From Syntrophaceae bacterium (lineage in GTDB: Bacteria > Desulfobacterota > Syntrophia > Syntrophales > Smithellaceae): 64,000 bases of DNA. Below the pieces are notes generated by a model, which worked only from the letters and a program-made list of their open reading frames with translations, ran no database searches and was not told the DNA's origin. Positions 3-58,197 of this stretch are shown here, one piece after another (positions within the stretch are counted from its first letter, which is position 1; every line of letters starts with the position of its first letter). Where the stretch lies: assembly GCA_003142535.1 (NCBI GenBank), contig PLMQ01000018.1:25573-89572 (forward strand), in the 5' to 3' direction. The position numbers and the translations under genes were made by a program.

Positions 3-65
3 TCGACTGCTCTTGCCAAACAGGGTGGCAAGGTTGATTTTGATTTGCGGATTACATTGAAATGA
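3..65 (+). CDS. 3' end of a gene running off the left edge (position suggests a T2SS assembly-platform gene, GspL/PilN-like)
   Basis: The frame is open from the window edge (..STALAKQGGKVDFDLRITLK*). The TGA at 63-65 overlaps the ATG of the next gene (ATGA). Only 20 codons are visible. Confidence 0.3.
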   Translation, partial: STALAKQGGKVDFDLRITLK

Positions 66-622: not shown

Positions 623-626
623 CAAA

Positions 627-2464: not shown

Positions 2465-3331
2465 ATGTATGCCGCATATTTCGGCCTGAAAGAAAATCCA
2501 TTCAACCTGGCGCCGGAGCCGCGCTATTTATATCTGAGCGGCCACCATCGCGATGCTCTGAATTGCCTGATTTACGGGATTAAAGAAAAAAAAGGATTTG
2601 TTCTGATTACAGGTGGTATCGGAACAGGTAAAACAACAGTCTGCCGGGCTCTGTTGAATTCTCTGGATGATTCTATCGAAACGGCGCTGATTTTCAATAC
2701 AGCCATTTCCGATCTGGATTTGCTGGAAACAGTACTCACGGAATACGGAGTTTCCATAAACGGCGGTCCGAAAACAAAAAAAGTTTACATTGATGCGTTA
2801 AATGATTTTTTATTAAATAATTTTGCCGCGGGCAAAAACGCCGTTCTAATCATCGACGAAGCACAAAATCTTTCCCACGGTGTTCTGGAGCAGATACGAA
2901 TGCTTTCCAACCTGGAAACGGAAAGAGAAAAGCTCATCCAGATAGTTTTAATCGGTCAGCCCGAACTGAATAATACTTTGATATTACCGGCGATGCGGCA
3001 GTTAAATGAAAGGATTACAGTTCGGCACGACCTGCAGCGGTTAGCGCCCGGAGAAGTGCGCAGTTATATCGCCTATCGTCTGACAATTGCCGGCGGCCCG
3101 GGTACCATTATCTTTACAGAAGGCGCTCTCGGGCAGATTTATAATTATACAGAGGGAATTCCCCGCCGCATTAATGCCCTTTGCGATCGTGCCCTGTTAA
3201 TCGCCTATTCGAAAAGCACTGCACGAATTGACCGCCGCCTGGTGAAGCGCGCTGTCCGCGATATCGGTATTAACTATTTCCAAAAAACTATGAGTCGCTG
3301 GGGAAAAATATGGTCGCGTTTAACCGCGTAA
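2465..3331 (+). CDS. gspA: ExeA/GspA-family AAA ATPase
   Basis: The N-terminus YFGLKENPFNLAPEPRYLY is typical of ExeA. It has Walker A (GGIGTGKTT) and Walker B (VLIIDEAQ). Confidence 0.8.
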   Translation: MYAAYFGLKENPFNLAPEPRYLYLSGHHRDALNCLIYGIKEKKGFVLITGGIGTGKTTVCRALLNSLDDSIETALIFNTAISDLDLLETVLTEYGVSINGGPKTKKVYIDALNDFLLNNFAAGKNAVLIIDEAQNLSHGVLEQIRMLSNLETEREKLIQIVLIGQPELNNTLILPAMRQLNERITVRHDLQRLAPGEVRSYIAYRLTIAGGPGTIIFTEGALGQIYNYTEGIPRRINALCDRALLIAYSKSTARIDRRLVKRAVRDIGINYFQKTMSRWGKIWSRLTA

Positions 3332-3364
3332 ACAGTGTGGTAAGTCCTTGACCGGAGAGTGATA

Positions 3365-4147
3365 ATGAGTTACATAAACGACGCCCTGCGCAAAGCGCAA
3401 AAAGAAAAAGAATCAAATTACTCGGCCTACAGCGGTATTATCTGCGCGCCCGATAAAAAAGCCGGTCGGCCTTCGAGCTTATTTTTAATAGCCGGTTTGT
3501 TTATATTGTTGACACTCGTTGTGGGCGTTATTGTTTTCTTATACGGGCTGAAGAATGAAAAGATACTGGTGGCAAAAGTATCAGCTCCGGCAGAGACGCC
3601 ATTAGCCGCGGCCGGGCACAGGCAGGGAGATGCTCCGGGGACCCCGGAGGCTGCGGCAATCAGGGAGCAGGTACCGGGTAAGAACACGACGGTGGGGGAA
3701 ATAATTGCGAGAAATACACCAGCGGCGGAAACTGAAAAGGCAAAACTGGAAGATGCAATTGTTCTTTATAGACACGCCCTTGCTTTACAACGGGAAGGGA
3801 AATTAAACGAGGCTAAAAAATTGTATAAAAAAATAATCAGAAATGACCCGCACCATGTAAATGCGCTCAATAATTTGGGGGTTATTTATTTAAGCCAGAA
3901 GAATTTTAAATGGGCTATAATCCGATTTAATGACGCGCTGACGATAAAACCCGGTTATGCCGATGCTTATTATAATCTGGCCTGCCTTTATTCACAGAAA
4001 AAAGAAATTGCCCGCAGTTTTCATTATTTGAAAACTGCCGTTAAGATAAATCCGGAAGTAAGACAGTGGGCAAAAAATGATGCTGATTTGCAAGAATTAA
4101 GCAGATTCCCCGACTTTAATAAGTTGATGGAGGAGAAGGAAAATTAG
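3365..4147 (+). CDS. GspB-like membrane-anchored TPR-repeat protein
   Basis: The N-terminus MSYINDALRKAQKEKE matches the GspB/ExeB-type start. It has one TM and C-terminal TPR repeats (AYYNLACLY, ALNNLGVIY). The ATG at 3365 lies behind GGAGAG, whereas the ORF track starts at a GTG at 3359. Confidence 0.6.
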   Translation: MSYINDALRKAQKEKESNYSAYSGIICAPDKKAGRPSSLFLIAGLFILLTLVVGVIVFLYGLKNEKILVAKVSAPAETPLAAAGHRQGDAPGTPEAAAIREQVPGKNTTVGEIIARNTPAAETEKAKLEDAIVLYRHALALQREGKLNEAKKLYKKIIRNDPHHVNALNNLGVIYLSQKNFKWAIIRFNDALTIKPGYADAYYNLACLYSQKKEIARSFHYLKTAVKINPEVRQWAKNDADLQELSRFPDFNKLMEEKEN

Positions 4148-4148
4148 G

Positions 4149-6416
4149 ATGAGCCTGCGGAAAAAACATTTAAACATAAGCCTGTTTTTTGCTTTGCTGC
4201 TATGTTCGGCAATTTTCTTAATTGAGCCGCCTGTGAGCATGGCGGCCAGGGTTGCCGGTTCCAATGTGCCTGTTACTACTACTCAAACTTTGCCGGTTGC
4301 GCCGACACCGGATAAAGAGGCGGTTCCGGCCGTAAAGAATCCTCAACAGGAAAGCGAACCGGCGGCAGACTCGGCCAAAAAGGTTATCCAGGGTATGCCT
4401 CCGCCGGCCGGTGCTCCGGTCCCGCAGAATGTTCCGCCCGCTCAGCAGATGAATATGCCGGCCACACCCGATACGTCTATAAAAAATGATACGGGTACGG
4501 TACCTCCTGCGGCCAAACAAAAACCAGCCCATTCCGTGAAGAGGCAGGCCGCTGAAAAATACGTGACTATTGATTTTGATAACGTGGATATTGGCGTATT
4601 TATTAAATTTGTCAGTGAGTTGACCGGCAAGAACTTTATTGTTGATGATAAGGTCAAAGGCAAGGTTACCATCATCTCACCGAAAAAAATTCCCCTTCAT
4701 GATGTCTATAAAGTCTTTCTTTCTGTTTTAGAGGTTTATGGTTTTACGACTGTTACCGTAGGCGACATGGTTAAAGTTATTCCGGCGGTTTTGGCGCGCG
4801 AAAAAAGTGTGGAAACAAGGCTCAAAAAAGAAATTACTGATCCTGAAGACCGGATTGTCACCCAGATTATCACCTTGGAGCGAGCCAATCCCGATGAAAT
4901 AAAACGCGTGCTCGATCCGATTATTTCCAAATCCAGCTCTGTTCTGTCCTATCCGCCCGCGGGCATGCTCGTTATTACTGATTTTCTTTCCAATATTAAA
5001 CGCCTGCAGGAAATAGTTCTGGCGCTGGATGTGGAAGGGGCCGGAGATCAGATATCTTACATTCCTCTGCAAAATGCTTCCGCGAGCGAAGTGGTAAAGT
5101 CGCTGACGATTATTTTCCAGCAGCGCCGTCCCAATGCTACGCCCCTGAGGATAGTTTCGGATTCCCGGACAAACTCAATTATCATCTTGGCCAGCGTTGC
5201 GGATACGGAAAATGTGCGCAAACTTGTTGCATTTATGGATAAAGACGTGCCCCGTGGCGAATCCAATATTCAGGTTTACCGCTTACAAAACAGCAATGCC
5301 GAAGATTTAGCGAAAGTTCTCAACAGTATTGTCAAAGATACCGGTGCCGCGGCCAGCGCGGCGGGTGGAGCGGCGGCGGCTCAAAAAGCGCTTACCCCGG
5401 TGGTTTCGAAAAATGTCCAGGTCGTCCCGGATAAGGCAACCAATACACTGGTGATTATGGCCGAAAGGGAAGATTATAAGATTCTCGAAAATATTATCAA
5501 GCAACTTGATGTGCCGCGGCCAATGGTTTACATTGAGGCCTTAATTATGGAAGTCAACGCCAATAAAGCTTTTAATCTGGGTGTTGAATGGCGCGGTCTG
5601 ACAAATACAGGTAAAGTCCCTGGTACAGATACAGGCCAATCGGCGGCTTTTATCGGTTCCGGTGGCGCGGGCAGTACAACACCGGGCGGCTACAATATCC
5701 TCGATACTTTAACTACGGCTGCTTTTCCGGGCGGTTTTACAATGGGCATTATCGGCGCCGGCATTACCATCGGTGGCGTTACCTTTCCTAACATCGGGGC
5801 TGTCATTCAGGCATACAAGACGGATCAAGAAGTGTCCATTTTATCCACTCCCCAGATCATGACACTGGATAATGAAGAAGCAGAAATAAATGTCGGCTCG
5901 AACGTGCCCTATATTACCCGTCAGGATGCAACTACAACGAGTGCCCAGTACCCGGTTAATTACAACACCTATGAGTATAAAGATGTCGGCGTGATCCTAA
6001 ACATCACGCCGCATATCAACGAGGAAAACTTTATTCGGCTGAAAATATCGCAGCAGGTCACCAAAGTGACCTCAGCCAGCACTTCTGCAACACCGACAAC
6101 ATTAAAAAGGACAGCAAAAACGACGGTAGTGATCAAGGATAATGAAACTATCGTTATCGGCGGCCTGGTGGGGGACAGTACGGAGAACGATACATATAAA
6201 GTACCGCTGCTGGGCGATATTCCCCTTCTGGGTTGGCTTTTTAAAACACATTCCACTTCCCGGGAAAAAACAAACTTGTATGTCTTTTTAACTCCGCATA
6301 TTGTCCGGACGCAACAAGATGCCAAGAAATTATTTGATGAAAAAAAGGAAACCATGGGTGAAGTTGTGGAAGGCGTAATAAAGTTGAACGAAAAAAAGCC
6401 GGAACAAAAACCCTAG
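4149..6416 (+). CDS. gspD: T2SS secretin GspD
   Basis: 755 aa with a signal sequence, N0-N3-like repeats and a secretin C-domain (VPLLGDIPLLGWLFK, LYVFLTPHIV). Confidence 0.9.
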   Translation: MSLRKKHLNISLFFALLLCSAIFLIEPPVSMAARVAGSNVPVTTTQTLPVAPTPDKEAVPAVKNPQQESEPAADSAKKVIQGMPPPAGAPVPQNVPPAQQMNMPATPDTSIKNDTGTVPPAAKQKPAHSVKRQAAEKYVTIDFDNVDIGVFIKFVSELTGKNFIVDDKVKGKVTIISPKKIPLHDVYKVFLSVLEVYGFTTVTVGDMVKVIPAVLAREKSVETRLKKEITDPEDRIVTQIITLERANPDEIKRVLDPIISKSSSVLSYPPAGMLVITDFLSNIKRLQEIVLALDVEGAGDQISYIPLQNASASEVVKSLTIIFQQRRPNATPLRIVSDSRTNSIIILASVADTENVRKLVAFMDKDVPRGESNIQVYRLQNSNAEDLAKVLNSIVKDTGAAASAAGGAAAAQKALTPVVSKNVQVVPDKATNTLVIMAEREDYKILENIIKQLDVPRPMVYIEALIMEVNANKAFNLGVEWRGLTNTGKVPGTDTGQSAAFIGSGGAGSTTPGGYNILDTLTTAAFPGGFTMGIIGAGITIGGVTFPNIGAVIQAYKTDQEVSILSTPQIMTLDNEEAEINVGSNVPYITRQDATTTSAQYPVNYNTYEYKDVGVILNITPHINEENFIRLKISQQVTKVTSASTSATPTTLKRTAKTTVVIKDNETIVIGGLVGDSTENDTYKVPLLGDIPLLGWLFKTHSTSREKTNLYVFLTPHIVRTQQDAKKLFDEKKETMGEVVEGVIKLNEKKPEQKP

Positions 6417-6479
6417 AGCCAGGTACGCCCTCGGAAAACAATATTCCGGCCAAGTCCAAAGAGTAGGCAATGTTCATCT

Positions 6480-8273
6480 ATGTCCAAAATCTATACAGCA
6501 CTGCAAGATTCCGCCATTACTGGCGCTGATTTGCCGCCCCAACTCGCAAAGCCCGCCCTCTCTTTCGCCACGAAACTGCTTTTAGCCGGTGTGCCTCAGG
6601 ATGTTCTGGATGAAGCTCTAAGTATCAAGGAGAAAACCGGTTCCGGCTTTTTTGAGCAGCTTCTGAAAAAGAAAGCAATAACGGAAGAGGAATTACTGAA
6701 AATAACGGGCGAACAATTTGGTCTGACCTGCTTAGCGGAACTGCCCACGGAAAGCATCAATATCGATTTTACCCAGCTTGTCGCCATCCACTATTTGAAG
6801 AAATTTAAAATGATTCCGCTGCAAACGCCGCAATCTGCGGCCATAGCGGTAAGCGATCCTACTAATTTCCAGCCCATCGATGATTTGCGCATGCTTTTGC
6901 AGATACCGCAGGCGAGCGTTGTTCTTGCCCCGCAAGAAGTGGTTATCGCGGCCATCAACCTGGCCTATGACATGAGCCGCTCTTCGGCTAAAGATTTCTT
7001 TGAGGAAATGAATGAGGAATCGGCCGATGATCTCATTTCGGAAATCAGCGAAACGGCGGATTTACTCGACGAAACCAGTGACGCGCCTATTATTAAATTG
7101 GTCAATCTGCTTGTTGCCGGCGCGATTAAAGACCGCGCCAGTGATATTCACGTCGAGCCGTATTCGAGTAACCTGAAAATTCGTTACCGCATTGACGGTA
7201 TTTTGTATGACATTTTAAACCTGCCGCGCCGTATCCAGTCTCCTCTTGTTTCCCGCATTAAAATTATGGCCAGGCTTAATATCGCCGAAAAGCGTCTGCC
7301 GCAAGACGGCCGCATCGAAATAAAAATTGCCGACAGACTTATCGACATCCGTGTTTCTATTATCCCGACGGCCTTCGGCGAAAGAGTTGTGCTGCGTTTG
7401 CTGGATAAAAGCGGCAAGATGATGATACTTTCCGATCTCGGCATGCGTGATGATCGCATCAAGCTGCTCAACAAACTGATTAAATCCCCCTACGGGATTC
7501 TTCTGGTAACCGGCCCCACCGGTAGTGGCAAAACAACAACTCTTTATGCCGCGCTCTCCACTATCAACCGGCCGGAAATAAATATCATTACCATTGAAGA
7601 CCCCATTGAATACCAGATGGAAGGCGTAGGCCAAATTCAGGTAAATCCGAAAATTGATTTGACTTTTGCTGCCGGTTTGCGTTCGATTGTCCGTCAGGAT
7701 CCCGATGTCATTCTGATCGGTGAAATACGCGACCGCGAAACGGCGGAAATTGCCATTCAATCGTCGCTAACCGGCCACCTTGTTTTTTCTACGCTGCATA
7801 CCAATGATGCCGCCAGCGCAGTCACCAGATTGATCGATATGGGTATTGAGCCTTTTCTGGTCACTTCATCCGTTATCGCGATTATCGCCCAGCGTCTGGT
7901 GCGGGTGCTTTGTCCGCACTGCAAGGAAGTCCATCAGCCGGATGTCGAATCTTTATCGAACCTCGGATTAAACAAATCGGTATTGAAGAACACCGCTTTT
8001 TACCGGAAGAAGGGTTGTAATTTATGCATGCACACCGGTTTCCGCGGCCGAATAGCTATATTTGAAATTATGGTTGTTGATGATGATATCAAAAGGCTCG
8101 TCTTGAAAACATCTGATGCCAACCAGATAAACGAGCTTGCCCTGAAACAGGGAATGATAACCTTGCAGCAGGATGGTATTCTTAAAGTCATGGAGGGAAT
8201 AACAACGATCGAAGAAGTGCTGCGCGTGACCAGAGCTCTGAATCGCAAAGAGGATATTGTGGCTGAAACATAA
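6480..8273 (+). CDS. gspE: T2SS ATPase GspE
   Basis: 597 aa with Walker A (GPTGSGKTT), Asp and His boxes, and a tetracysteine motif (CPHC...CNLC). Confidence 0.9.
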   Translation: MSKIYTALQDSAITGADLPPQLAKPALSFATKLLLAGVPQDVLDEALSIKEKTGSGFFEQLLKKKAITEEELLKITGEQFGLTCLAELPTESINIDFTQLVAIHYLKKFKMIPLQTPQSAAIAVSDPTNFQPIDDLRMLLQIPQASVVLAPQEVVIAAINLAYDMSRSSAKDFFEEMNEESADDLISEISETADLLDETSDAPIIKLVNLLVAGAIKDRASDIHVEPYSSNLKIRYRIDGILYDILNLPRRIQSPLVSRIKIMARLNIAEKRLPQDGRIEIKIADRLIDIRVSIIPTAFGERVVLRLLDKSGKMMILSDLGMRDDRIKLLNKLIKSPYGILLVTGPTGSGKTTTLYAALSTINRPEINIITIEDPIEYQMEGVGQIQVNPKIDLTFAAGLRSIVRQDPDVILIGEIRDRETAEIAIQSSLTGHLVFSTLHTNDAASAVTRLIDMGIEPFLVTSSVIAIIAQRLVRVLCPHCKEVHQPDVESLSNLGLNKSVLKNTAFYRKKGCNLCMHTGFRGRIAIFEIMVVDDDIKRLVLKTSDANQINELALKQGMITLQQDGILKVMEGITTIEEVLRVTRALNRKEDIVAET

Positions 8274-13891: not shown

Positions 13892-14145
13892 TTCGTGAAA
13901 CTCCAATTCCGAAAGCGAAGCTCGGCAGGGAACCCCGGCGCATGCCTGGGGATGCTGGTCGAAGCGTATCAGAATTGGGAAGTTGTAATGAGACCCAAAC
14001 TTCAGAAACAAAGTGCATAACCTAAAGGTCACAAGCTGAAGTTGGTTGGTCGAATTATCCCGCGAAGCGGAGAGTATAATCCCCCGCAGCGGGTTTAGGA
14101 ATCGGTTTCCAAAGCTTGCTTTGGGGATTATACCCGTGATTAAAG
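13892..14145 (+). repeat. family-1 hairpin-module array, locus A (3 modules, two with loop insertions)
   Basis: Starts TTCGTGAAACTCCAATT and ends CCCGTGATTAAAG. Module stems are CCAATTCCGA/…CAGAATTGG, AAACTTCAG/CTGAAGTT and TATAATCCCC/GGGGATTATA. The TAACCTAAAGGTCACA insert is at 14018-14033. Confidence 0.8.
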
Positions 14146-16514: not shown

Positions 16515-16745
16515 AAATCACGGATACTATATCCCTGCTTATACGGGATAATTCGGCTAACAAACTTCAATTCGCTTCGCTTTTGAAGTTTGAGTCTCAT
16601 TATCCTCCGCTTCGCGGGATAGTTCAACTTATCAATTCCGACGCGCTTTGCTTTCGGAATTGGAGTTTCACGACCACCGCTTACGCGGGATTGTTCAACT
16701 TGCCAATTTCAATGCACTGCGTTATTGAAATTGGAGTTTCACGAA
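16515..16745 (-). repeat. family-1 hairpin-module array, locus B1 (3 tandem modules)
   Basis: Three units of about 72 nt. Each has a small CCGC-N3-GCGG hairpin, then GGATARTTCRAC, a long variable-stem hairpin, and AGTYTCAY. The array ends in GTTTCACGAA. The ORF 16505..16864 is a read-through artefact. Confidence 0.8.
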
Positions 16746-17010
16746 TAAAAAAATACAGCAAAGCAGGCTGCCGCTTCTTCTCTTCAGAAATTACATTTTT
16801 TGAAGTAACGATGCGGGATATATCGATTAAGTATGAGAGTAAAGATAAAAAATCCCGGCTGTAACTATTAAGGATTACAATCGGTCTGTTTCAGGAAGTG
16901 GAGGCGGCAAACCAATGATAGCAAGTAAGGCCGGGCCGCTAGTTATTTATAAAAAATGTCAGCATTTTCGTTTGCATAAACATTTGAACTGGAATAAATA
17001 GAAATAATAT

Positions 17011-17110
17011 TTAATCCCGCTGTACGGGGCTGTGCGGGATTGTTCAACTTGCCAATTTCAACTTGTGACCTTTAGGTTATGCACTGCGTTATTGAAATTG
17101 GAGTTTCACA
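17011..17110 (-). repeat. family-1 hairpin module, locus B2 (copy of the last B1 module plus an 18-nt loop insert)
   Basis: 17034-17061 and 17080-17109 are identical to 16685-16712 and 16713-16742. The extra CTTGTGACCTTTAGGTTA lies at 17062-17079. The module ends 35 nt upstream of mobB. Confidence 0.85.
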
Positions 17111-21873: not shown

Positions 21874-22123
21874 CTTTAATCACGGGTATTATATCCCTGC
21901 TTATACGGGATAAATCGGCTAACCAATTCCGATGCACTTCGTTTCGGAATTTGAGTCTCATTGCCCTCCGCTTCGCGGGATAATTATATTGCCCCGCTTA
22001 GCTTTGCATGCGGGATTAATTCAACTTGCAGATATTACTACCCTGCGCTTGTAATATCTGAGTTTCATTAATTCAACTTACCAATTTCCCTACACTACGT
22101 TATGGAAATTTGAGTTTCACGAA
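21874..22123 (-). repeat. family-1 hairpin-module array, locus C (4-5 modules)
   Basis: Starts CTTTAATCACGGGTAT, the reverse complement of the end of locus A. Ends GAGTTTCACGAA, the reverse complement of the start of locus A. It begins 10 nt upstream of the start codon of the 1397-aa gene. Confidence 0.8.
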
Positions 22124-35192: not shown

Positions 35193-35354
35193 ATACTCCG
35201 GCGACTAGCTATGCAGTATGGCACACAATCACAACTTCGGTCGCCTATATCCGGAGGGAAAATGTTATGCGAGAGCAAAAAATTTACCCGACCCTTTAGA
35301 CATTCACGAAAGAATAGTTTTTGTCTTTTTTCTGGCTCTTTGGCTTAGCGCAAT

Positions 35355-35456
35355 TTAGAAGACTTTGAAGTAAGACAATAAGAAAACAATAATGACAACA
35401 ACCAACACCGCCAATAAGACAAAATTGAATTTGCGTTTCTCTTTTATTACTGCCAT
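35355..35456 (-). CDS. possible 33-aa single-TM small protein
   Basis: MAVIKEKRKFNFVLLAVLVVVIIVFLLSYFKVF, preceded by the strong SD AAGGAGG 6 nt upstream. The only support is the RBS and the hydrophobic helix. Confidence 0.3.
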   Translation of the reverse strand: MAVIKEKRKFNFVLLAVLVVVIIVFLLSYFKVF

Positions 35457-35640: not shown

Positions 35641-35850
35641 TAATGAGACTCCAATTTCAAAAGCGTAGCGAATTAAAATTGGTTAGTCGAATTATCCCGC
35701 ATAAGCGGCGGTAATGAGACTCCAATTTCAAAAGCGTAGCGAATAACCTAATAACCTAAAGGTTACGCGAGGTCACAAATTAAAATTGGTTAGTCGAATT
35801 ATCCCGCGTAAGCGGTGGTAGTGAGACTCCAATTCCAAAAGCAAAGCGAA
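35641..35850 (+). repeat. family-1 hairpin-module array, locus D (2 full modules plus a third truncated in its loop)
   Basis: The unit TAATGAGACTCCAATTTCAAAAGCGTAGCGAATTAAAATTGGTTAGTCGAATTATCCCGCATAAGCGGCGG is repeated. Unit 2 has a 36-nt loop insert at 35744-35779. Unit 3 stops after ..GCAAAGCGAA, where the first attC-like site begins. Confidence 0.85.
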
Positions 35851-35911
35851 TAACGAAAAAATCAGCGGGAGGCGGGCGTAGCCTGCCGATCCGCTGTATT
35901 GTCTGGTTATG
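35849..35911 (-). repeat. attC-like site 1
   Basis: Sequence is ATAACGAAAAAATCAGCGGG-AGGCGGGCGTAGCCTGCCGA-TCCGCTGTATTGTCTGGTTAT, with outer AAC...GTT boxes. It is 3' of hicA. Confidence 0.55.
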
Positions 35912-35934
35912 CCAATTCTTTAATTATATGCTTT

Positions 35935-36081
35935 TCAAAGGTGTTCATCTATTTCATCATGTCTTGGAACGGGCTGCTTTTTACCTGTTTTAGGATTAAT
36001 ATAAAGATCGTGACGGCCGCCGTGCCTTACAAACTCGCAGCCGAAGGAAGTGATTTTCTTAATAAGTTCTTTTCTCTTCAT
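35935..36081 (-). CDS. hicA: HicA-family mRNA interferase toxin (48 aa, below the ORF-track cutoff)
   Basis: Hand translation gives MKRKELIKKITSFGCEFVRHGGRHDLYINPKTGKKQPVPRHDEIDEHL. The ATG overlaps the hicB stop (ATGA). Confidence 0.7.
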   Translation of the reverse strand: MKRKELIKKITSFGCEFVRHGGRHDLYINPKTGKKQPVPRHDEIDEHL

Positions 36082-36275
36082 AGATTGAAAGCAAGTTCTC
36101 TAACATTATGATTTTCAGGAACATCTTCCATAGTCATGAGCATGTAGGCATCTTTCATATTCTCTTCAAGCTCTTCAAGAGTTTCACCCTGGGTCATTAT
36201 TTCTGGATGTTCAAACAATTTGCCTATCCAAAATTTTTCGCCCTTCCAATAAATCATTTTCAGTTTTGTTTCCAT
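36078..36275 (-). CDS. hicB: HicB-family antitoxin (UPF0150-like)
   Basis: METKLKMIYWKGEKFWIGKLFEHPEIMTQGETLEELEENMKDAY, starting at an ATG behind AGGAGG. The track's longer ORF (to 36359) runs into attC-like site 2. Confidence 0.65.
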   Translation of the reverse strand: METKLKMIYWKGEKFWIGKLFEHPEIMTQGETLEELEENMKDAYMLMTMEDVPENHNVRELAFNL

Positions 36276-36355
36276 ATTCTTACCTCCTGACAACAACTTT
36301 TGATAATAATACCATAAAAATTGAAAATTTTCCGTTTTATATTGCTGGTTTTCAG

Positions 36356-36413
36356 GCATAACGAAAAAATCAGCCGGAGCGTAGCGATTGGCTATATTGA
36401 TTTTGAGGTTATC
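36356..36413 (-). repeat. attC-like site 2
   Basis: Sequence is CATAACGAAAAAATCAGCCGG-AGCGTAGCGAT-TGGCTATATTGATTTTGAGGTTATC. The vapC stop codon (36409-36411) lies inside the outer box. Unpaired bases are on one arm only. Confidence 0.6.
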
Positions 36414-36777
36414 TTTTTTTTATGTATTTTATGCACAGGTTATCTGCAGCTTGCGCCAGTTTCTTATCTTGTGTCCAGATAGGAACACCTGTCAATACAG
36501 CGGATGTAATAAGGTGGACATCAACATAGCCCAACCCTTTTCCCATTAAACGGTTATTTTCTATAAATGACAATACTTCGTCATGTTCGGCTTCGATGCA
36601 CATCGGCAGCAATTGCAAAAACGAAAGGATGATTGCTCTGTCTTTGAGATTCCCGCAGGCAAGTTCGCCTGCAATCAATGGGTGGCATAGTACCCGTCCA
36701 TCATTGAGCAGGTTTGCAAGATCAGCATTTCCATCCCTCAAATGTGAAACCCAAACCGATGTATCCACAAGAACCAT
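36409..36777 (-). CDS. vapC: PIN-domain toxin VapC
   Basis: MVLVDTSVWVSHLR... carries the conserved acidic residues of a PIN domain. It lies 3 nt downstream of vapB. Confidence 0.8.
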   Translation of the reverse strand: MVLVDTSVWVSHLRDGNADLANLLNDGRVLCHPLIAGELACGNLKDRAIILSFLQLLPMCIEAEHDEVLSFIENNRLMGKGLGYVDVHLITSAVLTGVPIWTQDKKLAQAADNLCIKYIKKR

Positions 36778-36780
36778 TTC

Positions 36781-36975
36781 CTATACCGCTCCTTTTCTTC
36801 TCGGTATCGCTTTCAACTGCTTTTGAGTCCCACCGAGCCTTGCAAGCCTCTTGCCACTTTCTCTGGCAATAAGAGCCTCAAGTCCAAGCTTAACGAGGGC
36901 GGTCTTTTCCTTGATTCCAGTCATTTTGGATGCTTTGGCCAGCAGGTTATCTTCGATATTCAAAGTTGTTCTCAT
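36781..36975 (-). CDS. vapB: VapB-type antitoxin
   Basis: 64 aa (MRTTLNIEDNLLAKASKMTGIKEKTALVKLGLEALIARES), upstream of the PIN toxin. Confidence 0.75.
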   Translation of the reverse strand: MRTTLNIEDNLLAKASKMTGIKEKTALVKLGLEALIARESGKRLARLGGTQKQLKAIPRRKGAV

Positions 36976-37043
36976 AGCTTCATCTCATACAATTAGTATG
37001 CCTGAGTATGTATCATCTATGCATATCTGTCAAGTCATTCTTA

Positions 37044-37096
37044 GCTAACGATAAAATCGCCCGGAGCATAGCGATCGGGTGTATTGACTGGTTAAT
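37044..37096 (-). repeat. attC-like site 3
   Basis: Sequence is CTAACGATAAAATCGCCCGG-AGCATAGCGAT-CGGGTGTATTGACTGGTTAA. Confidence 0.55.
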
Positions 37097-37118
37097 AATT
37101 TTATTAAATATTTTAATA

Positions 37119-37673
37119 TCACTTTATTTTATCAAGCCACTTCTTAATGGAAAGAAAAAATTTCATAAAGACATTCGACCCTATCGTCATTAATACTATT
37201 GTGTCGCGTGTAGATGAAGATGATATTTTGTTTTGAGAGAAATTAAAATCAGATTTACCCATTGATATTGCAAAACATTTACCTATGGCAAAAATAAGTT
37301 CATCCCAATCCGATGTTTTTCCCGTAATTGTATTTTGATATGTAGCGATTTCGTTGTTGACCGATTCCCATATACTGTCATTATTCGGTCGAATCATCAT
37401 GCTTGCTCTAATTATCTTGCTAAAAGAAACAAGAATTTCATCTTTCTTCTGTGCGTCGCCTGACCATAAGGTAAAAGCATAAATACAAGTAAATAGTTTT
37501 AATGCGTAAATATGAAATCGCAATTCAGTTTCTACGTTTGGATCAATTTGTTCAATTTCATAATTTTCTTTGTAAGATTGAATAGAAGAATTTGCCTCCT
37601 TATCCATAATACACAGAAAATACAAATGTTCGGCAATTTGATCTGGTGTATATTTTGTTTTGAAAATAGTCAT
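37119..37673 (-). CDS. cassette-encoded hypothetical protein (184 aa)
   Basis: The ORF is bounded by attC-like sites 3 and 4. The start is set at MTIFKTKY because the track's start (37703) lies inside site 4. No motif was recognised. Confidence 0.5.
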   Translation of the reverse strand: MTIFKTKYTPDQIAEHLYFLCIMDKEANSSIQSYKENYEIEQIDPNVETELRFHIYALKLFTCIYAFTLWSGDAQKKDEILVSFSKIIRASMMIRPNNDSIWESVNNEIATYQNTITGKTSDWDELIFAIGKCFAISMGKSDFNFSQNKISSSSTRDTIVLMTIGSNVFMKFFLSIKKWLDKIK

Positions 37674-37686
37674 GAAATTGCTCCAT

Positions 37687-37740
37687 ATTAACGAAAAAAT
37701 CACCCGGAGCGTAACGATCGGGTGTATTGACCTTGTTATA
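37687..37740 (-). repeat. attC-like site 4
   Basis: Sequence is TTAACGAAAAAATCACCCGG-AGCGTAACGAT-CGGGTGTATTGACCTTGTTAT. Confidence 0.55.
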
Positions 37741-37745
37741 GAATT

Positions 37746-38729
37746 TTATTGATTGTGATTCCAAGCATTCATAATATCTCGTGCCCTATCTTTGCTGAAA
37801 CCTTGACCAATAGCTTCATCAAGATGCCTATTTATGTCTGCTTCATTTGGTCTGAAATTTGGTGCCATAGACCTACTAAGTAATCCAAATCCGGAAATTG
37901 TATCTAAATCTTCGGAAAGTAAGGTAGGCACTTCTTCTACCGGAAGGATTGGTGTATCTTTTCTTTTACTTTGTGCCATATATTGATTTCTCTCTACTCT
38001 AGATAATGACATAGCTTGGTCAAGCAGTTCTTTCCCGTCAGGCATTATTTTATTCATATATTCAATCATTTTTTTCTCGGTGTCTTCCAATAAAAGTATT
38101 ACATCTTGAATGTTTCCACCTATCGATGCGCCTTGCTCCAACACTGCTTGGACTTTTTGCAGGGCGGTTGAATCCTTTAGAGTGGATAAAGGGATTTTGT
38201 CTTCGGAAATTTCTAATTCAGCGCCTAGGTTTTTTGCAGCTTTAATAAATCTATCTTGATCAAGTTTATCTTTTTCCCTAGCTTCTTCTATATCTTTTTT
38301 TGATATAGGTCGCCTCTCTGGTGGAAATAAGACGTTTTTATATCTTCGCTGAAGATGCCGCTCAAAACAACCAGGATATTCACTCCATATTATCATTTCA
38401 CCATTTTCAAAAAATGCATCCTCGGGATGAATATATGCGCCGTATTTATTTATAATTTCTTTTTTCATGTTATCTATTACCGCAATGTATCTTTGATCTC
38501 CACCATGCTCCGCTTTTGATTCTTCAAGATTTTTTAAAAATATAGGGATAGATAATCTACCACCTTCTTGAGACAATCGTGCTATCTCTTTATCTATTTC
38601 TTTCATTTGTTCTGCAGTTAGATCTTTTATCTTTTCAGGGGAGAATTGAGGAGCGCCTTTTTTACGGCTGTAGATAACATAACCAATAAAGATGAATACC
38701 AAAACAAGTATTATCCAAGACATAAGCAA
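37746..38729 (-). CDS. cassette-encoded hypothetical protein (327 aa, N-terminal TM anchor)
   Basis: MLMSWIILVLVFIFIGYVIY forms a TM helix, followed by a charged helical soluble domain. No motif was recognised. Confidence 0.55.
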   Translation of the reverse strand: MLMSWIILVLVFIFIGYVIYSRKKGAPQFSPEKIKDLTAEQMKEIDKEIARLSQEGGRLSIPIFLKNLEESKAEHGGDQRYIAVIDNMKKEIINKYGAYIHPEDAFFENGEMIIWSEYPGCFERHLQRRYKNVLFPPERRPISKKDIEEAREKDKLDQDRFIKAAKNLGAELEISEDKIPLSTLKDSTALQKVQAVLEQGASIGGNIQDVILLLEDTEKKMIEYMNKIMPDGKELLDQAMSLSRVERNQYMAQSKRKDTPILPVEEVPTLLSEDLDTISGFGLLSRSMAPNFRPNEADINRHLDEAIGQGFSKDRARDIMNAWNHNQ

Positions 38730-38751
38730 TCACCTCTTTATTCATTTATCC

Positions 38752-38815
38752 TATAACGAAGAAATCAGCCGGAGCGTAAGCGATCGGCTGGATTGAAAGG
38801 CGAAAAATGTTCTTG
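38752..38815 (-). repeat. attC-like site 5 (most divergent outer arm)
   Basis: Sequence is ATAACGAAGAAATCAGCCGG-AGCGTAAGCGAT-CGGCTGGATTGAAAGGCGAAAAATGTTCTTG. Confidence 0.5.
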
Positions 38816-38894
38816 CAATCACCTTTTTCCGTCAAGGGGATATTTTTGCTCTTGACAAGATGAGGCCTTATAGGGGTTAGGTTTTGATTTTCCT

Positions 38895-39467
38895 TTACTT
38901 ATTCGGCATCGTTGTCTTTTTAATAGTATTGTCATTTGCAGTGTATGTTTCGATCAGCGATTTGTATAATTTTGTATCAGCAAATTTTAAGCCAAGGCAA
39001 AACATGAAAAAAAGTATCAAAACTAAGGACCAAAAATAATATGCAGGAACATGATCTCGAAGCCATTTGAGAGTAATTTTTTCTGGATAGTCTATTGCCT
39101 TTTTTTCTGGCACTATGATTTCTTTTTTGGGGGTACAAACATCGGGATTTCTCTTCAGCCAAGTAACAACGGAGTCCAAAACGGAAATAATGTTTTGAAC
39201 GCTTGTTATAGACGGCGACTGGTAATAATTAGAAATTCCTTCATTGAATATTTGATTTATAAGACTAGAATATTTATTTGTTCCAATAGTATCATTAAGC
39301 AGATCAATTATTTCTATAACAAACGTGCGAAAGCGGGGATCGTCTTGTGGGTTAATATGGTGATGGTGGATCATGTCAGAACTTGTTGGTGGTGTAAACC
39401 GAGCCATTATAGCGCTAAGTTCATTGCGGTATCGCTCAAGCTCTTGCAGAATATTTTCAGTTGTCAT
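38895..39467 (-). CDS. hypothetical protein (190 aa, C-terminal TM), probable first cassette
   Basis: The ORF is followed by attC-like site 5. It has a C-terminal TM (YYFWSLVLILFFMFCLGLKF) and a HHHH run. GTTAAAC (minus strand, 39469-39475) lies just 5' of the ATG. Confidence 0.5.
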   Translation of the reverse strand: MTTENILQELERYRNELSAIMARFTPPTSSDMIHHHHINPQDDPRFRTFVIEIIDLLNDTIGTNKYSSLINQIFNEGISNYYQSPSITSVQNIISVLDSVVTWLKRNPDVCTPKKEIIVPEKKAIDYPEKITLKWLRDHVPAYYFWSLVLILFFMFCLGLKFADTKLYKSLIETYTANDNTIKKTTMPNK

Positions 39468-39793
39468 AGTTTAACCTAACAATTAATATACCAACTTAGT
39501 ATTTTCCGATATTTCGTGCAAGTATAAGCTTTTGAAAAATAAAATGCAAATGTATATATTCCTTTAAAATCAATGGGGAATAGAATACTGTTGCTTAGCT
39601 TTTTGTGGTAATATGGAGTAACCCCAATAAAGGCAAATTGGGATAATTTATGGATAATTTGGCAAAAACTTATAATAATGTCCTTCCTGGTTCCAAAAAT
39701 TTCTTCTGGAGCCTGAGGGGTCATATCTGTATTTGACCTTGGACAATATGCTCAACTTGCGATATCCGTCTAGCCAGTGCCTTACTATCAAAT

Positions 39794-39828
39794 AAAAAAG
39801 GCGGCGCTGATGAGCGTCGCCTTTTTCT
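39794..39828 (-). terminator. bidirectional rho-independent terminator
   Basis: AAAAAAGGCGGCGCTgatgAGCGTCGCCTTTTT is a GC-rich stem with A/T runs on both sides, 3' of the zinc-ribbon gene. Confidence 0.7.
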
Positions 39829-39847
39829 GTTAGAATAATTGTAGCAA

Positions 39848-54182: not shown

Positions 54183-56237
54183 TTAAAACTCAAAGGAAAG
54201 TCCTCCTTTGAAAGTAATCCCCGGCATAGGATAGTAAGTGTTGTCGCTGTAAGGAGCTCCATACATGCCAAAAGATGAATATTTCACATTGGCCAGATTT
54301 TCCACACCAAAGAAAGCAGTCATTTTGACCTTCTCAATAGGTGGTTTATAAGAAAGATAAATATTGAGAAGAGTGTAACTATCTAGCTTTTCACCAACGT
54401 TATCGAAGTCCTGCGACAGAAAGGAATCCCCCACATAGCGCACTTCAGGACGTAACATCAGGTTATAGGGTAGATAAATCTCCAAACCTAAAGTTGCCAT
54501 CCGGTTGGGTACAAGCCACAGCTCCTTTTTATTGTAGGCACCGTTCTCATAAGTGGCTTTATGATAAGTGAAATTACCATACAGCAGGGCTTGTTTTTCC
54601 CACAAGTAGGAAAGGGAAACCTCTGCACCATCATGGCGTGTATTTCCGGTATTTTGATTATAACCCGTCGGGAAAAACCCCACATACTGGATTTCATCCT
54701 CCATATCGATCCTGAACAGGGTCAGTCCTATTTTCAAGTTATTCAGCGGATAGAATTCCATGCCCGCTTCGGTACTGATACCTTTTTCTTTTTCAAGGCT
54801 CTTTAAAAATCCTCCACCGGCGCCATTAAAGGAAGCTACTTCATCGAGAAAAGGAATACGGTAGATGGTACTGTATTTTGCGAAGACCTTCGATTTTTTG
54901 CCCACAAGCCAGGTCAGCCCTGCTTCATATGCTTCGGCATTGTATGTTTTATCCTGATCTGTAAAGCTGTTGGCCGGAGTCACAAAATCCAGATTGGAGC
55001 CCCTGATCGACGCCCGTTCCAGGCGATAACCGGCGCTGAAAATAAGATTTTTCAGAATGCTGAATTCGTCGCGAATATAGCCTCCCAGGCTCTCCCGCGT
55101 AAAATCCGCCATACTTGATTTACTGGTTCTCTCCTGATCACTGTAAAAATATTTCCTGTAGGGTTCGTTATAATAATCAACACCCAAAATCACTTTATTG
55201 TTGAACCCGAAGATTTCTTTAGTCAGAACATACTTTGGCGTAATGCCGTATGTATCCGCGCTCGTGTCGGCAAAGAGAAACCACGATGGCATATTCACCC
55301 CGAGGTCTTTTTTGCCATACAGAAAATTGATTTCGAGTTGTCCCCATGATCCGAAGAATGATTTGATCCCCAGATTAACATTGGTATATTTATCAGAACC
55401 GTCATCGTTCGAATGGGCAGGAGACCAGGGACCACCAGCCGGCTGATATTGGCGCCGATCCTGCTCCATTTGTAGCTTAGTTAAAGCGCCCGGCATTTGA
55501 TAATCAGTTTTAATAAAAGAGACGCCCAGCGAAACGCTAAGCAAATCACTGGCTGTATATCCCAGATCAAAACCGCCGCTCTGCGCCGAATATTTCGAGC
55601 GCTCCCGATAGCCGAAGTTAAAATTATTTTCTCCGTTTGCAGCGTAAGTCCATTTTTCAGTGGCTCCGGTTACGCTAACCCGTTCGTCATTAAGGCCATA
55701 ACTTCCGACAATGGCGGACGCGTTAAACTGCGGTTGGGCCTTGCCTTTCTTGGTGATGATATTAATAACACCGCCGATCGCGGCATCACCGTAAAGAACA
55801 CTTTCCGGACCCCGGACGACTTCAATCCTTTCGATATTATTGACCGGTATCTGCAGCCAGTTGATGGAAGACATATCCGTCCGGTTCAGGCGGCGTCCAT
55901 CCAGCAAAATCAGGGCTTTCCCGTAAGGGTTATCTCCACCCATACCACGCATATCGACGTAGGCTTGGGAGGTATTGCCGCTGGATGTGCGGAATTGGAT
56001 ACTTTCCAGATTATCCAGAACATCAACTACTGTTGTTGCGCCGGATTTGCTGATATCATCTGCCGTGATAATGGTAACATTAGCAGGAGTTTTACGCGTT
56101 TCCTGCTTGTCACGCGTGGCAGTTACAACTATTTCGCCCATTGTTACAGCAGTGTTGTCATCACTTTTATTTTGAGCTTGTGCCTCTGAAAAATTTGCTA
56201 CAGAAAACAACAGAATTAAAAGAAATACTTTCTTCAT
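54183..56237 (-). CDS. TonB-dependent outer-membrane receptor (BtuB-like, B12-riboswitch controlled)
   Basis: Signal peptide (MKKVFLLILLFSVANFSEAQA), TonB box/plug (GEIVVTATR) and terminal ..GLSFEF. The start is set at 56237 behind AAGGAG, because the track's 27-aa extension overlaps the riboswitch. Confidence 0.85.
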   Translation of the reverse strand: MKKVFLLILLFSVANFSEAQAQNKSDDNTAVTMGEIVVTATRDKQETRKTPANVTIITADDISKSGATTVVDVLDNLESIQFRTSSGNTSQAYVDMRGMGGDNPYGKALILLDGRRLNRTDMSSINWLQIPVNNIERIEVVRGPESVLYGDAAIGGVINIITKKGKAQPQFNASAIVGSYGLNDERVSVTGATEKWTYAANGENNFNFGYRERSKYSAQSGGFDLGYTASDLLSVSLGVSFIKTDYQMPGALTKLQMEQDRRQYQPAGGPWSPAHSNDDGSDKYTNVNLGIKSFFGSWGQLEINFLYGKKDLGVNMPSWFLFADTSADTYGITPKYVLTKEIFGFNNKVILGVDYYNEPYRKYFYSDQERTSKSSMADFTRESLGGYIRDEFSILKNLIFSAGYRLERASIRGSNLDFVTPANSFTDQDKTYNAEAYEAGLTWLVGKKSKVFAKYSTIYRIPFLDEVASFNGAGGGFLKSLEKEKGISTEAGMEFYPLNNLKIGLTLFRIDMEDEIQYVGFFPTGYNQNTGNTRHDGAEVSLSYLWEKQALLYGNFTYHKATYENGAYNKKELWLVPNRMATLGLEIYLPYNLMLRPEVRYVGDSFLSQDFDNVGEKLDSYTLLNIYLSYKPPIEKVKMTAFFGVENLANVKYSSFGMYGAPYSDNTYYPMPGITFKGGLSFEF

Positions 56238-56279
56238 GGTTCTTCTCCTTTCCCCCTCGGGATTAAAGTAAGTTGAACC

Positions 56280-56420
56280 GCCATAAAGTCTCCTGGCTTG
56301 CGGCAGCCTACTTTCCACGCCTTCCCAATGCTCTTGGCATCAGTGGCAAAATGTGGATTTCGTTCCGCTTACAGGTGCGGGGCAGCGCCGGCTTTTTACC
56401 GGCTTCCTCTCTTGGCAGTT
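56280..56420 (-). promoter_or_regulatory. cobalamin (B12) riboswitch
   Basis: The minus strand reads ..AGAGGAAGCCGGTAAAAAGCCGGCGCTGCCCCGCACCTGTAAGCGG..GCCACTG..GGGAAGGCG..AAGCCAGGAGAC. This includes the conserved GGAAGCCGGT core and the B12 box (AGCCAGGAGAC, 56288-56298). Confidence 0.8.
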
Positions 56421-56422
56421 CT

Positions 56423-57199
56423 CTAGGTTAGTAATGTCATCCTGGGTAATCCGGTTTGCGGATTTCGGTCTACCAGAACATCAACATCATAAACCTCTTT
56501 TATATTTACCGCGGTTATGACTTCCGCGGGATTTCCTATAGCATAATTTTTACCGCAGTAAAGTAAAATTATGCGGTCAGCATGTTGACTGGCCAAATTT
56601 ATGTCATGGGTGACAAAAATCACCGTAAGATTTTGTTCTTTATTCAACTGGCGCAGTAAAGAAAGAAATTGAACCTGATGTTTTAAATCCAGAAAAACAG
56701 TACTCTCATCAAGCAGCAGTATTTTCGGCTCCTGAGCAAGAGCGCGGGCAATCAAAACACGCTGGCGCTCACCGGTGCTGAGCTCGTCGAATCTGCGGGA
56801 GGCCAGGGCCAGAGTATCCGTCTTTTCCATCGCCTCGCGGACTATCCGGTAATCTTGCATATTTTCAAATGTAAAATTGCTCAAATGCGGAAATCGCCCC
56901 ATGAGCACTATTTCTTCGGCATAAAATGAAAATATGGAAGGAGTTTCCTGCGGCACAATGGCTACTGTTTTAGCTATTTCCCGGCGGCGCCATTGATTCG
57001 TTTCCTTACCATCAATCAGCATTCTCCCCGTATCGGGAAAGAGAATGCCGTTAATAATTTTTAGAAGGGTTGTTTTGCCGGAACCATTAGGTCCGATTAC
57101 TGCCACAACCTGGCCTTCCTCAACCGTAAAAGAGAGGTCATTTAAAACCGGCTTTTCGTCATAACAGAAATTTATATTTTGACCGCAAATCAACGGCAT
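56423..57199 (-). CDS. ABC transporter ATPase (FepC/BtuD-like)
   Basis: Walker A (GPNGSGKTT), signature (LSTGERQR) and Walker B (LLLDEST). Confidence 0.8.
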   Translation of the reverse strand: MPLICGQNINFCYDEKPVLNDLSFTVEEGQVVAVIGPNGSGKTTLLKIINGILFPDTGRMLIDGKETNQWRRREIAKTVAIVPQETPSIFSFYAEEIVLMGRFPHLSNFTFENMQDYRIVREAMEKTDTLALASRRFDELSTGERQRVLIARALAQEPKILLLDESTVFLDLKHQVQFLSLLRQLNKEQNLTVIFVTHDINLASQHADRIILLYCGKNYAIGNPAEVITAVNIKEVYDVDVLVDRNPQTGLPRMTLLT

Positions 57200-57201
57200 A
57201 G

Positions 57202-58197
57202 TTAATTAGACTTCCTTTTCAAAAGAAAAATAAAATAAGGCGCGCCGCAAAGAGCGGTGATCACACCAACAGGTAATTCCGATGGGGCTAAAATAATTCT
57301 GGCGATTGTGTCGGCGGCCACCAAAAAAGCAGCGCCGAAAAGAGCGGCGGCAGGTAAAAGCAGGCGATGGTCGGAGCCGAAAAGTAGGCGCATCATATGC
57401 GGCACAATGATGCCGACAAAACCAATAATACCGCTCAAAGACACGGCAACGGCGGTAATAAGGGATGTGATAATTAAAAGCCCCTGCTTGGAGCGATCTA
57501 CATTAACCCCCAATTGCCTCGCCGTTTCATCACCCTGAACAAACAAATTTAATTTACGCGCCTGCAGGTAAAGAAAAATAAATCCGCCAATCAGACAAGC
57601 TGCGGCTATCCAAACTTCTTTTACCGATGCGCGGGAAAGATCGCCCATCAGCCAGAATGTAATACTGTGCAATTCCATGCTGTTTACTATCGAAAGGAAA
57701 AACAGGATAGCAGCGGAAAAAAAAGCATTCACGACGACACCGGAAAGTAAAAGCGAATTATCCAAAAGAGGTCCTCTGCCGCCGCCGGCAACAATAAAAA
57801 CCAGAAATACAGTAGCCAGAGCTCCGAAAAAAGCAAGCAGGGGCACACCGAGATAAAATGATCCGGCTCCAATAAGTATTCCAATAATTGCTCCCAAAGC
57901 CGAACCGCCGGAAATTCCCAAAACATAGGGGTCAGCTAGTGGATTGCGCAGCAGCGCCTGAAAAACAACACCGCTGAGCGAAAGAGAAGCACCGACAATA
58001 CCGGCGAAAATTATTCGGGGCAAACGTACGGAAAAAATGATTAATTCATCCTGTGCGGAAAGAGAATATCGTCCGGTAAAAATATCCGTGAAAGACATTA
58101 GTATCTGCCCGGGATTAATATAGACGCTGCCCGCTGCAAGTGAGACGATGCCCAGCGCCAGCAAAATAATGAACATTACCGCGCTGATTTTCAGCAC
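57202..58197 (-). CDS. FecCD-family permease (BtuC-like)
   Basis: 331 aa, polytopic. Contains RLPRI and a C-terminus (GAPYFIFLL) typical of FecCD/BtuC. Confidence 0.8.
   Translation of the reverse strand: MLKISAVMFIILLALGIVSLAAGSVYINPGQILMSFTDIFTGRYSLSAQDELIIFSVRLPRIIFAGIVGASLSLSGVVFQALLRNPLADPYVLGISGGSALGAIIGILIGAGSFYLGVPLLAFFGALATVFLVFIVAGGGRGPLLDNSLLLSGVVVNAFFSAAILFFLSIVNSMELHSITFWLMGDLSRASVKEVWIAAACLIGGFIFLYLQARKLNLFVQGDETARQLGVNVDRSKQGLLIITSLITAVAVSLSGIIGFVGIIVPHMMRLLFGSDHRLLLPAAALFGAAFLVAADTIARIILAPSELPVGVITALCGAPYFIFLLKRKSN

Follow-up and report, generated by a model that had tools for sequence, protein, structure and literature searches.

The stretch of DNA analyzed here, called the window below, is 64,000 nt long and comes from Syntrophaceae bacterium GCA_003142535.1 (contig PLMQ01000018.1, positions 25,573-89,572 of the forward strand). 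It carries an array of five minus-strand gene cassettes, each ending in a copy of one imperfect palindrome, which we describe as attC sites. The array is headed by a sequence related to the recombination platform (attI and the integrase gene intI) of integrons. Taken together, the data make us confident, if not certain, that the locus is a genuine integron cassette array, left behind in a Smithellaceae (Syntrophales) chromosome by the decay of a sedentary integron. Its features are given below in their minus-strand order, with the attC scores of a covariance model, R1, and with the cognate matches that are explained further on; ORF stands for open reading frame and aa for amino acids.

39650 to 39711, plus strand: predicted 5' stub of intI, about 20 codons, from alignment to intI-attI modules; the homology ends at 39711
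39522 to 39649, no strand assigned: intI-attI intergenic region, from multiple and pairwise alignment, with the conserved block ATTACCACAAAA.GC.AAGC.
39478 to 39521, minus strand: predicted attI (type B), ...CGAAATATCGGAAAATAC-TAAGT-TGGTATATTAATTG/TT, with the likely crossover (marked by the slash) between G39480 and T39479
38757 to 39479, minus strand: cassette 1, orphan ORF of 190 aa (38895-39467) and attC5
38749 to 38807, minus strand: attC5, R1 score 53.7 bits
37692 to 38756, minus strand: cassette 2, orphan ORF of 327 aa (37746-38729) with an N-terminal transmembrane segment, and attC4
37684 to 37742, minus strand: attC4, R1 score 73.6 bits
37049 to 37691, minus strand: cassette 3, orphan ORF of 184 aa (37119-37673) and attC3; cognate match 4/4
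37041 to 37099, minus strand: attC3, R1 score 60.4 bits
36362 to 37048, minus strand: cassette 4, vapB (36781-36975), vapC (36409-36777) and attC2; cognate match 3/4
36354 to 36415, minus strand: attC2, R1 score 61.5 bits
35854 to 36361, minus strand: cassette 5, ORF of 66 aa (36078-36278), hicA (35935-36081) and attC1; cognate match 4/4
35846 to 35914, minus strand: attC1, R1 score 44.0 bits
35641 to 35853, no strand assigned: distal boundary, 2.5 tandem copies of an element resembling repetitive extragenic palindromes (REP-like; families D4 and D5)

The five palindromes (55-65 nt, all on the minus strand) were returned by a repeat finder as families D1-D3 and again by R1, at the places where an earlier reading of this DNA, made from the sequence only, had put them. 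They are spaced by about 500, 687, 643, and 1066 nt, and 0 chance matches are expected for their 42-nt consensus. R1 was built from 105 copies of other genomes, excluding those of the window, and was searched with filters off. It gives exactly five matches in the 64 kb (44.0-73.6 bits, E values from 1e-10 to 7.5e-20), and the best score at any other place is 12.4 bits (E ~0.9). Each repeat lies directly 3' of a minus-strand ORF or ORF pair, including the orphans of 184, 327, and 190 aa, and the stop codon of vapC (36409-36411) falls within the R'' box GATAAC, all of which agrees with the sequence-only reading. All copies end in ...CGTTA and four of the five begin with a ..TAAC box, attC5 being the exception; their stems are CAGCCG/CGGCTG, CACCCG/CGGGTG, or CAGCGG/CCGCTG. 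The R'' and R' boxes of attC sites (RYYYAAC and GTTRRRY) can be recognized in attC1 to attC4, which look intact; the loop of attC1 is longer by 10 nt. In the R1 alignment the R'' box of attC5 is degenerate, with TTCGC replacing CTAAC, so that cassette 1 is probably fixed and no longer excisable.

The same element was sought in other genomes with a degenerate 25-nt pattern from the conserved arm, run against 8-kb blocks of species-representative genomes (L-numbers below are comparison loci, L133-L252 being metagenome loci). It is present in at least 119 of these blocks, and most matches are in metagenome-assembled genomes (MAGs) of Syntrophales, Smithella, Syntrophaceae, or "Deltaproteobacteria." In 119 loci R1 finds 259 sites, up to eight per 8 kb and nearly all co-oriented within a locus. 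The earlier reading would have been weakened by a repeat found mostly outside cassette contexts; the family occurs solely in cassette-like, same-orientation arrays. The element is about 55 nt long (typically 55-56) and highly conserved, with the top-strand consensus ryTAAC-aarr-tCAATmCAGCCG-ATCGCTACGCTC-CGGCTGATTTTTTC-GTTAkr and a variable spacer of 4-5 nt between the AAC box and the L box. The box consensus is RYMTAAC for R'' and GTTAKRY for R', most sites having 0-1 mismatch per 4-nt degenerate part. The hairpin is conserved as such: pairing holds in 97.8% of the inner-helix cells, one pair has changed doubly from GC to CG in 23 of 105 copies, and none of 500 shuffles reached the covariation score. 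Inspection of the alignment (A3) shows an extra base in the R''/L'' arm, A/C on the top strand (T/G on the bottom strand), and 1-2 more unpaired bases. The loop is nearly invariant over more than 100 MAGs and two integrase clades, an unusual conservation for attC. Taken with the same-orientation arrays and with the introns, the crossover signature, the linkage to integrases, and the shared vapBC cassette described below, the boxes and the hairpin identify the members of the family as true attC sites.

Some copies of this attC family have unexpected hosts or interruptions. Near-identical sites are found in archaeal-named bins (L069 and L108, Methanobacterium and Methanosarcina), in bins of Bacteroidota (L010, L066, L086, L114, and L116), of Ignavibacteria (L047 and L059), and of Nitrospirota (L067, L090, L096, and L113); these off-phylum copies reflect either binning errors on short contigs or the spread of cassettes between phyla. 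In L043, L094, and L102 the element is broken on the bottom strand after ...TTGT and continues with GTGTACGCCCGG. Rfam places group II intron domains at the broken attC of L094 and L102 (RF02001, 129-132 bits). Each of these two loci has two intron copies (RF02001 and RF01998; L094 at 1340-1609 and 3858-4127, plus strand; L102 at 2807-3137 and 5407-5737, minus strand), and the one in L043 lies near 290. Insertion into the bottom strand of attC, against the direction in which the cassettes are transcribed, is established for group IIC-attC introns (PMC3001079).

The junctions between cassettes provide further information. Once a cassette has passed through a circular form, its 5' end carries the last bases of R' (TTRRRY), so that the expected pairing partner of this end is the R'' of its own attC and not that of the upstream site. 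We compared the 4 nt that follow G/TT at the upstream site with the reverse complement of the 4 nt that precede AAC at the next site. Over 83 consecutive site pairs, the mean match is 3.07 out of 4 and 43 pairs match perfectly. The mean is 1.73 when the two ends are taken from the same site and 1.62 for random pairs, and none of 10000 permutations reached the observed value. Cassettes 2 to 5 of the window score 4/4, 4/4, 3/4, and 4/4; the 5' end of cassette 2, for instance, is TTATAG and its own R'' is CTATAA. This complementarity with the own R'' is the signature of a G/TT crossover.

The attC family is also linked to integron integrases. A tyrosine recombinase with the IntI-specific ALARKYP...DPRSG...RHH segment is found beside the repeats at L008, L012, L027, and L100. 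For the TIGR02249 profile ("integron integrase," cutoff 265 bits) the scores are 433 bits at L008, 426 at L012, and 415 at L218. L012 has the classical divergent layout, with the integrase at 23-1039 (minus strand) and eight repeats at 3151-7641 (plus strand). The enzymes fall into two clades, which have different attI sites and the same attC family. IntI-A, of 339 aa, comprises those of L008, L012, and L027. IntI-B, of about 443 aa, is encoded at L218 (2748-4148, minus strand) and L235 (1367-2692, minus strand) and shares about 50% identity with the enzyme of L012; in IntI-B some 110 aa at the N-terminus form an extension that is missing in IntI-A. The attI-A sites beside L008, L012, and L027 have AATAAGTGGAAAA repeats and ...CTTATTACACTG/TTAGAC, unlike attI-B.

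It is to the IntI-B platform that the head of the window array is related. The sequence-only reading saw no attI-intI module on either side of the array; this was an error, since attI and the 5' stub of intI lie at 39478-39711. This segment aligns with the intI-attI module of L218 and L247 at 65% identity over 239 nt (E 3.7e-20), and L011 and L235 also align. In the multiple alignment the ATG at 39650 corresponds to the intI start codon, and the homology ends about 20 codons later. The 45 nt upstream of cassette 1 (39521-39476, minus strand) read ...CGAAATATCGGAAAATAC-TAAGT-TGGTATATTAATTG/TTAGG. This attI-B motif heads about 25 arrays in the genome loci, where attC is almost never upstream of it. 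A metagenome scan with the motif gave at least 120 contigs, and among the metagenome contigs listed 41 have the family attC downstream on the same strand, 1 has it upstream, and none has it on the opposite strand. When the 4 nt behind the GTT of the motif are compared with the R'' of the following attC, 10 of 20 cases are perfect (mean 2.85), and because of this match we regard the motif as the point of insertion. In L218 and L235 a full-length, divergent IntI-B gene starts about 126 nt from the motif, which for this reason is taken to be the attI of IntI-B. The predicted attI of the window (39478-39521) thus stands at the head of its array. The crossover is likely to be between G39480 and T39479, in the GTTAGG of 39480-39475. 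The earlier reading had chosen GTTAAAC (39469-39475) as the core; this sequence is present, but the conserved site is the overlapping GTTAGG. The region between intI and attI probably holds promoters, and a consensus promoter scan gives a minus-strand candidate, TTTGCA-18-TATACT, at 39550-39521.

Searches for an integrase confirmed what had been said of its absence. Past the stub, tblastn with IntI-A and IntI-B found no protein-level remnant of intI in the window. Pfam scans of the flanking ORFs found no integrase gene, and the 10-kb flanks beyond either end of the window carry none. Upstream of the attI motif of the other arrays there is no conserved gene that could be a candidate new recombinase, the sole recurrent gene being a PIF1/RecD-like helicase at one orthologous locus. 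No conserved sequence that might be the right half of an empty attI was found after the last attC of arrays. With five attC sites and no intI for some 35 kb in one direction and some 34 kb in the other (10-kb flanks counted), the array is a CALIN (attC sites that are clustered and have no integron integrase) under the IntegronFinder definition (PMC4889954). All tests run support the view, already that of the sequence-only reading, of a cassette array or CALIN with toxin-antitoxin cassettes and without integrase in the window: the R1 scores, the same-orientation arrays, the linkage to IntI, the crossover signature, and the absence of the array in relatives described below.

The cassettes themselves show no new function: they are two toxin-antitoxin pairs and three orphans. 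Pfam recognizes VapB (PF09957) and the PIN domain of VapC (PF01850) in cassette 4, in line with its first annotation. The label hicBA of cassette 5 is borne out for HicA (PF07927) and not for hicB, which is unverified because the ORF upstream of hicA (36078-36278) has no family match; this ORF is a putative antitoxin. The three orphans and the putative HicB have no matches in Pfam, NCBIfam, PADLOC, and PHROGs. The vapBC cassette is shared between arrays, being found in at least 9 others at 60-92% aa identity, with attC directly after it each time (L012, which is intI-linked, L029, L031, L032, L036, L043, L062, L096, and L099). Its neighbor cassettes there differ from those of the window, which are missing from these loci; distant hicA matches (46-56%) occur in L050, L077, and L091. 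In the window vapBC is preceded by a promoter-like site at 37033-37005 (minus strand), TTGACA-17-CATACT, according to the consensus promoter scan, and copies in other arrays keep it (L099 near 3332 and L029 near 1138). Toxin-antitoxin cassettes are well known in chromosomal integrons (PMC13108822), and vapBC and hicA with its partner would probably stabilize the array against loss. In L002 (ENA WOOD18 scaffold_303), a 62-kb contig stops exactly where vapC starts, inside the array; this end may be an assembly break at a cassette that is repeated elsewhere in the community.

The array lies among housekeeping genes: threonine synthase, AIR-synthase-like, DHH phosphoesterase, galT-like, Zn-ribbon protein, D-Ala-D-Ala ligase, and TRAP transporter. 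The homologs of the galT-like protein are named Smithellaceae or Smithella. The comparison of related genomes that had been proposed for this locus shows that the array is missing at the same site in relatives, so that it is a lineage-specific insertion. In L126, L127, and L128 (74-78% identity in the galT-like protein) fewer than 90 nt, holding a bidirectional terminator, separate the galT-like gene from the convergent Zn-ribbon gene. In L125 (86% identity) there are 195 nt, compared with 4204 nt in the window (35642-39845). The L125 locus also keeps, at 5841-5942 (minus strand) and called there as 33 aa, a small conserved ORF for a hydrophobic peptide that the window has at 35296-35400 (minus strand), with a strong ribosome-binding site, between the galT-like gene and the REP-like elements. 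The only RNA elements that an Rfam scan detected in the window, there being no attC family in Rfam, were a tRNA and a cobalamin riboswitch (56268-56450, minus strand, 92 bits) upstream of genes for a TonB-dependent receptor and a FecCD/ABC transporter (54183-58197).

At its distal end the array abuts the REP-like elements: the R' of its last attC (G35854/TT) runs straight into the loop and right arm of their third copy. The left arm that this partial copy lacks was sought at the other end of the insertion and was not found there. The REP-like unit consists of a small hairpin, CCGCTTAYGCGGG, and a larger one, CTAACCAATTT..loop..AAATTGGAGTC, and is often in tandem. The family is found in the window at 14026-14070, 16537-16751, 17072-17108, and 21899-21985 and at other loci; because it is dispersed and its loops are variable, we place it outside the integron. 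The loop TCGCTACGCT and a CTAAC..CAAT left arm, both present in the attC family, recur in some of its copies, and a long-loop variant contains GTGACCTTTAGGTTAT. The shared TCGCTACGCT and an apparent 36-nt insertion had suggested that the repeats at 35641-35851 were variant attC sites or an insertion target. This was rejected, as they belong to the dispersed REP-like family with its variable loops and the 36-nt "insertion" is its common long-loop variant.

How could such an array have formed? On the minus strand, the divergent intI stub, the intI-attI intergenic region, attI, and five attC-ended cassettes follow one another. We infer that the cassettes were captured singly, as circles, by an integron integrase that would have joined attC, as a folded bottom strand, to attI by recombination at G/TT, and that this left cassette 5' ends (TTRRRY) able to pair with their own R''. 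The integrase gene would have been deleted later, sparing some 20 codons. The array could now be rearranged only with IntI supplied from elsewhere in the genome, and a promoter inside the surviving intergenic region would probably drive its first cassettes.

Several observations sit less well with a decayed integron. At about 62 nt the intI stub is short, and it is degenerate, with 62-67% nucleotide identity; tblastn gives no significant protein-level match for it. Cassette 1 has no cognate R'' match. About half of the family sites (48%) have T at position 5 of R', so that the R' consensus departs from GTTRRRY. DNA folding of both strands gives the inner GC stem only as the minimum-energy structure of four of the five copies; the outer R-box helix is predicted for copy 2 only, and the folding z-scores are modest. 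Lastly, the five metagenome contigs that have this exact locus are identical in content and so give no direct sign of cassettes moving here.

Could the repeats be intrinsic terminators or a REP- or MITE-type repeat (miniature inverted-repeat transposable element) unrelated to integrons? Their GC stem is followed on the coding strand by ATTTTTTC, the loop is conserved in a way unusual for attC, and a real REP-like family with the same TCGCTACGCT loop abuts the array. Yet within the 64 kb the repeats are confined to the array, a simple terminator scan calls none of them except for one partial match, and the family has one orientation per locus and is linked to IntI (TIGR02249). Terminators and REP elements are also unable to yield the G/TT cognate pattern, and we have rejected this reading, to which we give next to no credence. 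An origin as a CALIN that never had its own integrase deserves a little more attention, since no intI is found in the window or its 10-kb flanks, cassettes have been documented to insert at places in the genome other than att sites (bioRxiv 10.1101/2022.09.11.507474), and CALINs are common, 95% of them having no recognizable intI pseudogene nearby (PMC4889954). IntI acting in trans would then have inserted the cassettes at an attG-type site downstream of the Zn-ribbon gene. We find this improbable: attG insertion would bring neither an attI nor the start of intI, and here a conserved attI heads the array and the 230 nt upstream of it are homologous to an intI-attI module, start codon included. 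The survival of attI, the intergenic region, and the 5' codons of intI is what leads us to a decayed integron and not to cassettes at a secondary site.

A harder question is whether the decayed integron is really out of use. It might instead be a working part of a distributed integron, in which attI and the array are kept without an integrase in cis and IntI is encoded elsewhere. Full intI accompanies only 2 of the 53 type-B attI sites that have at least 1.6 kb upstream, fragments accompany 3, and the other 48 (~90%) have none. At 46 of 84 sites the module homology ends 126-220 nt upstream of the start of the leader TCGGAAAA, just inside intI; in the window it ends at 202 nt. The retained attI-B module usually ends within intI codons 0-30, a pattern that reflects either repeated truncation at one place or the spread of a truncated unit. 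In four orthologous loci without intI (L013, L022, L105, and L117) a PIF1-like helicase gene starts 132 nt upstream of the motif; the upstream identity of these loci is 85-88%, whereas from G/TT onward they are unrelated (58-62%). The first cassette differs in 7 of 8 same-flank site pairs, although 3 of these 7 involve the intI-bearing L218, L235, and L247, which leaves 4 of 5 differing among the intI-less pairs. Moreover, an intI-linked integron (L012) and a second, distinct attC locus (L101) lie 400 kb apart on a single MAG contig. These data suggest a turnover of cassettes at attI sites without cis integrase, with the reservation that the sets are small and that the helicase-linked sites have a variant motif. 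Against a working array in the window stand the small number of orthologous sets, the different attI motif subtype of the orthologous intI-less loci, the invariance of the window locus in five metagenomes, and the defect of its first attC (attC5). On balance we consider that the array may still serve in this way, with the odds somewhat against it.

The locus resembles several known systems without being identical to any of them. Like the CALINs described by Cury et al. (2016, PMC4889954), it is chromosomal, has at least two co-oriented attC sites and no nearby intI, and its size is close to their mean of about 5 attC sites; it differs in keeping attI, the intergenic region, and the 5' stub of intI, since most CALINs have no such trace. 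With sedentary chromosomal integrons, such as those of Vibrio with their Vibrio cholerae repeats (VCRs), it shares attC sites that are highly similar within the array and across the taxon, a chromosomal position among housekeeping genes, and cassettes of orphan ORFs and toxin-antitoxin systems. Homogeneous, taxon-specific attC sites, including a model for those of Deltaproteobacteria, are well established (Ghaly et al. 2021, PMC8352920). In contrast to these sedentary integrons, the array is very small (5 cassettes), its integrase has been deleted, and the attC sites of its family are short (55-56 nt) with a nearly invariant loop. Gillings et al. reportedly described in 2005 the chromosomal integrons of Xanthomonas, whose intI has been inactivated and is usually a pseudogene at one conserved locus. 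They too keep an array after the loss of integrase function; here nearly the whole of intI has disappeared, and stubs like this one stand at the head of arrays at many different loci. Cassettes inserted at attG sites, which are short, non-conserved, and double-stranded with a GWT core (Loot et al., bioRxiv 10.1101/2022.09.11.507474), are likewise outside a complete integron, but the window array starts at a conserved attI with homology to an integron platform. Arrays of this kind are thus already known, and the only parts that a specialist might find new are the survival of attI and of an intI stub and the surplus of attI sites without intI.

The loss of the integrase can be read directly from the sequence of this array, because attI, the intergenic region, and the intI stub have been retained. 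This makes it a well-documented example of the origin of a CALIN, an origin that is not visible in most of them. It also gives integron biology a sharply defined attC family with two integrase clades in uncultured syntrophic bacteria, together with the attI sequences of both clades. The intI-less attI set, in which the first cassettes differ between orthologous loci, makes the activity of trans-acting integrases in natural populations directly testable. The IntI-B lineage of Syntrophales and neighboring anaerobes may consist mostly of scattered attI-headed arrays, with intI cut to 0-30 codons, that would be landing pads served in trans and at whose attI cassettes might still come and go; we propose this tentatively, as a view that still falls short of being the probable one. 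If true, the lineage would form a distributed integron in which landing pads are many and integrase genes few, and the array of the window would be one of its pads and not a dead relic.

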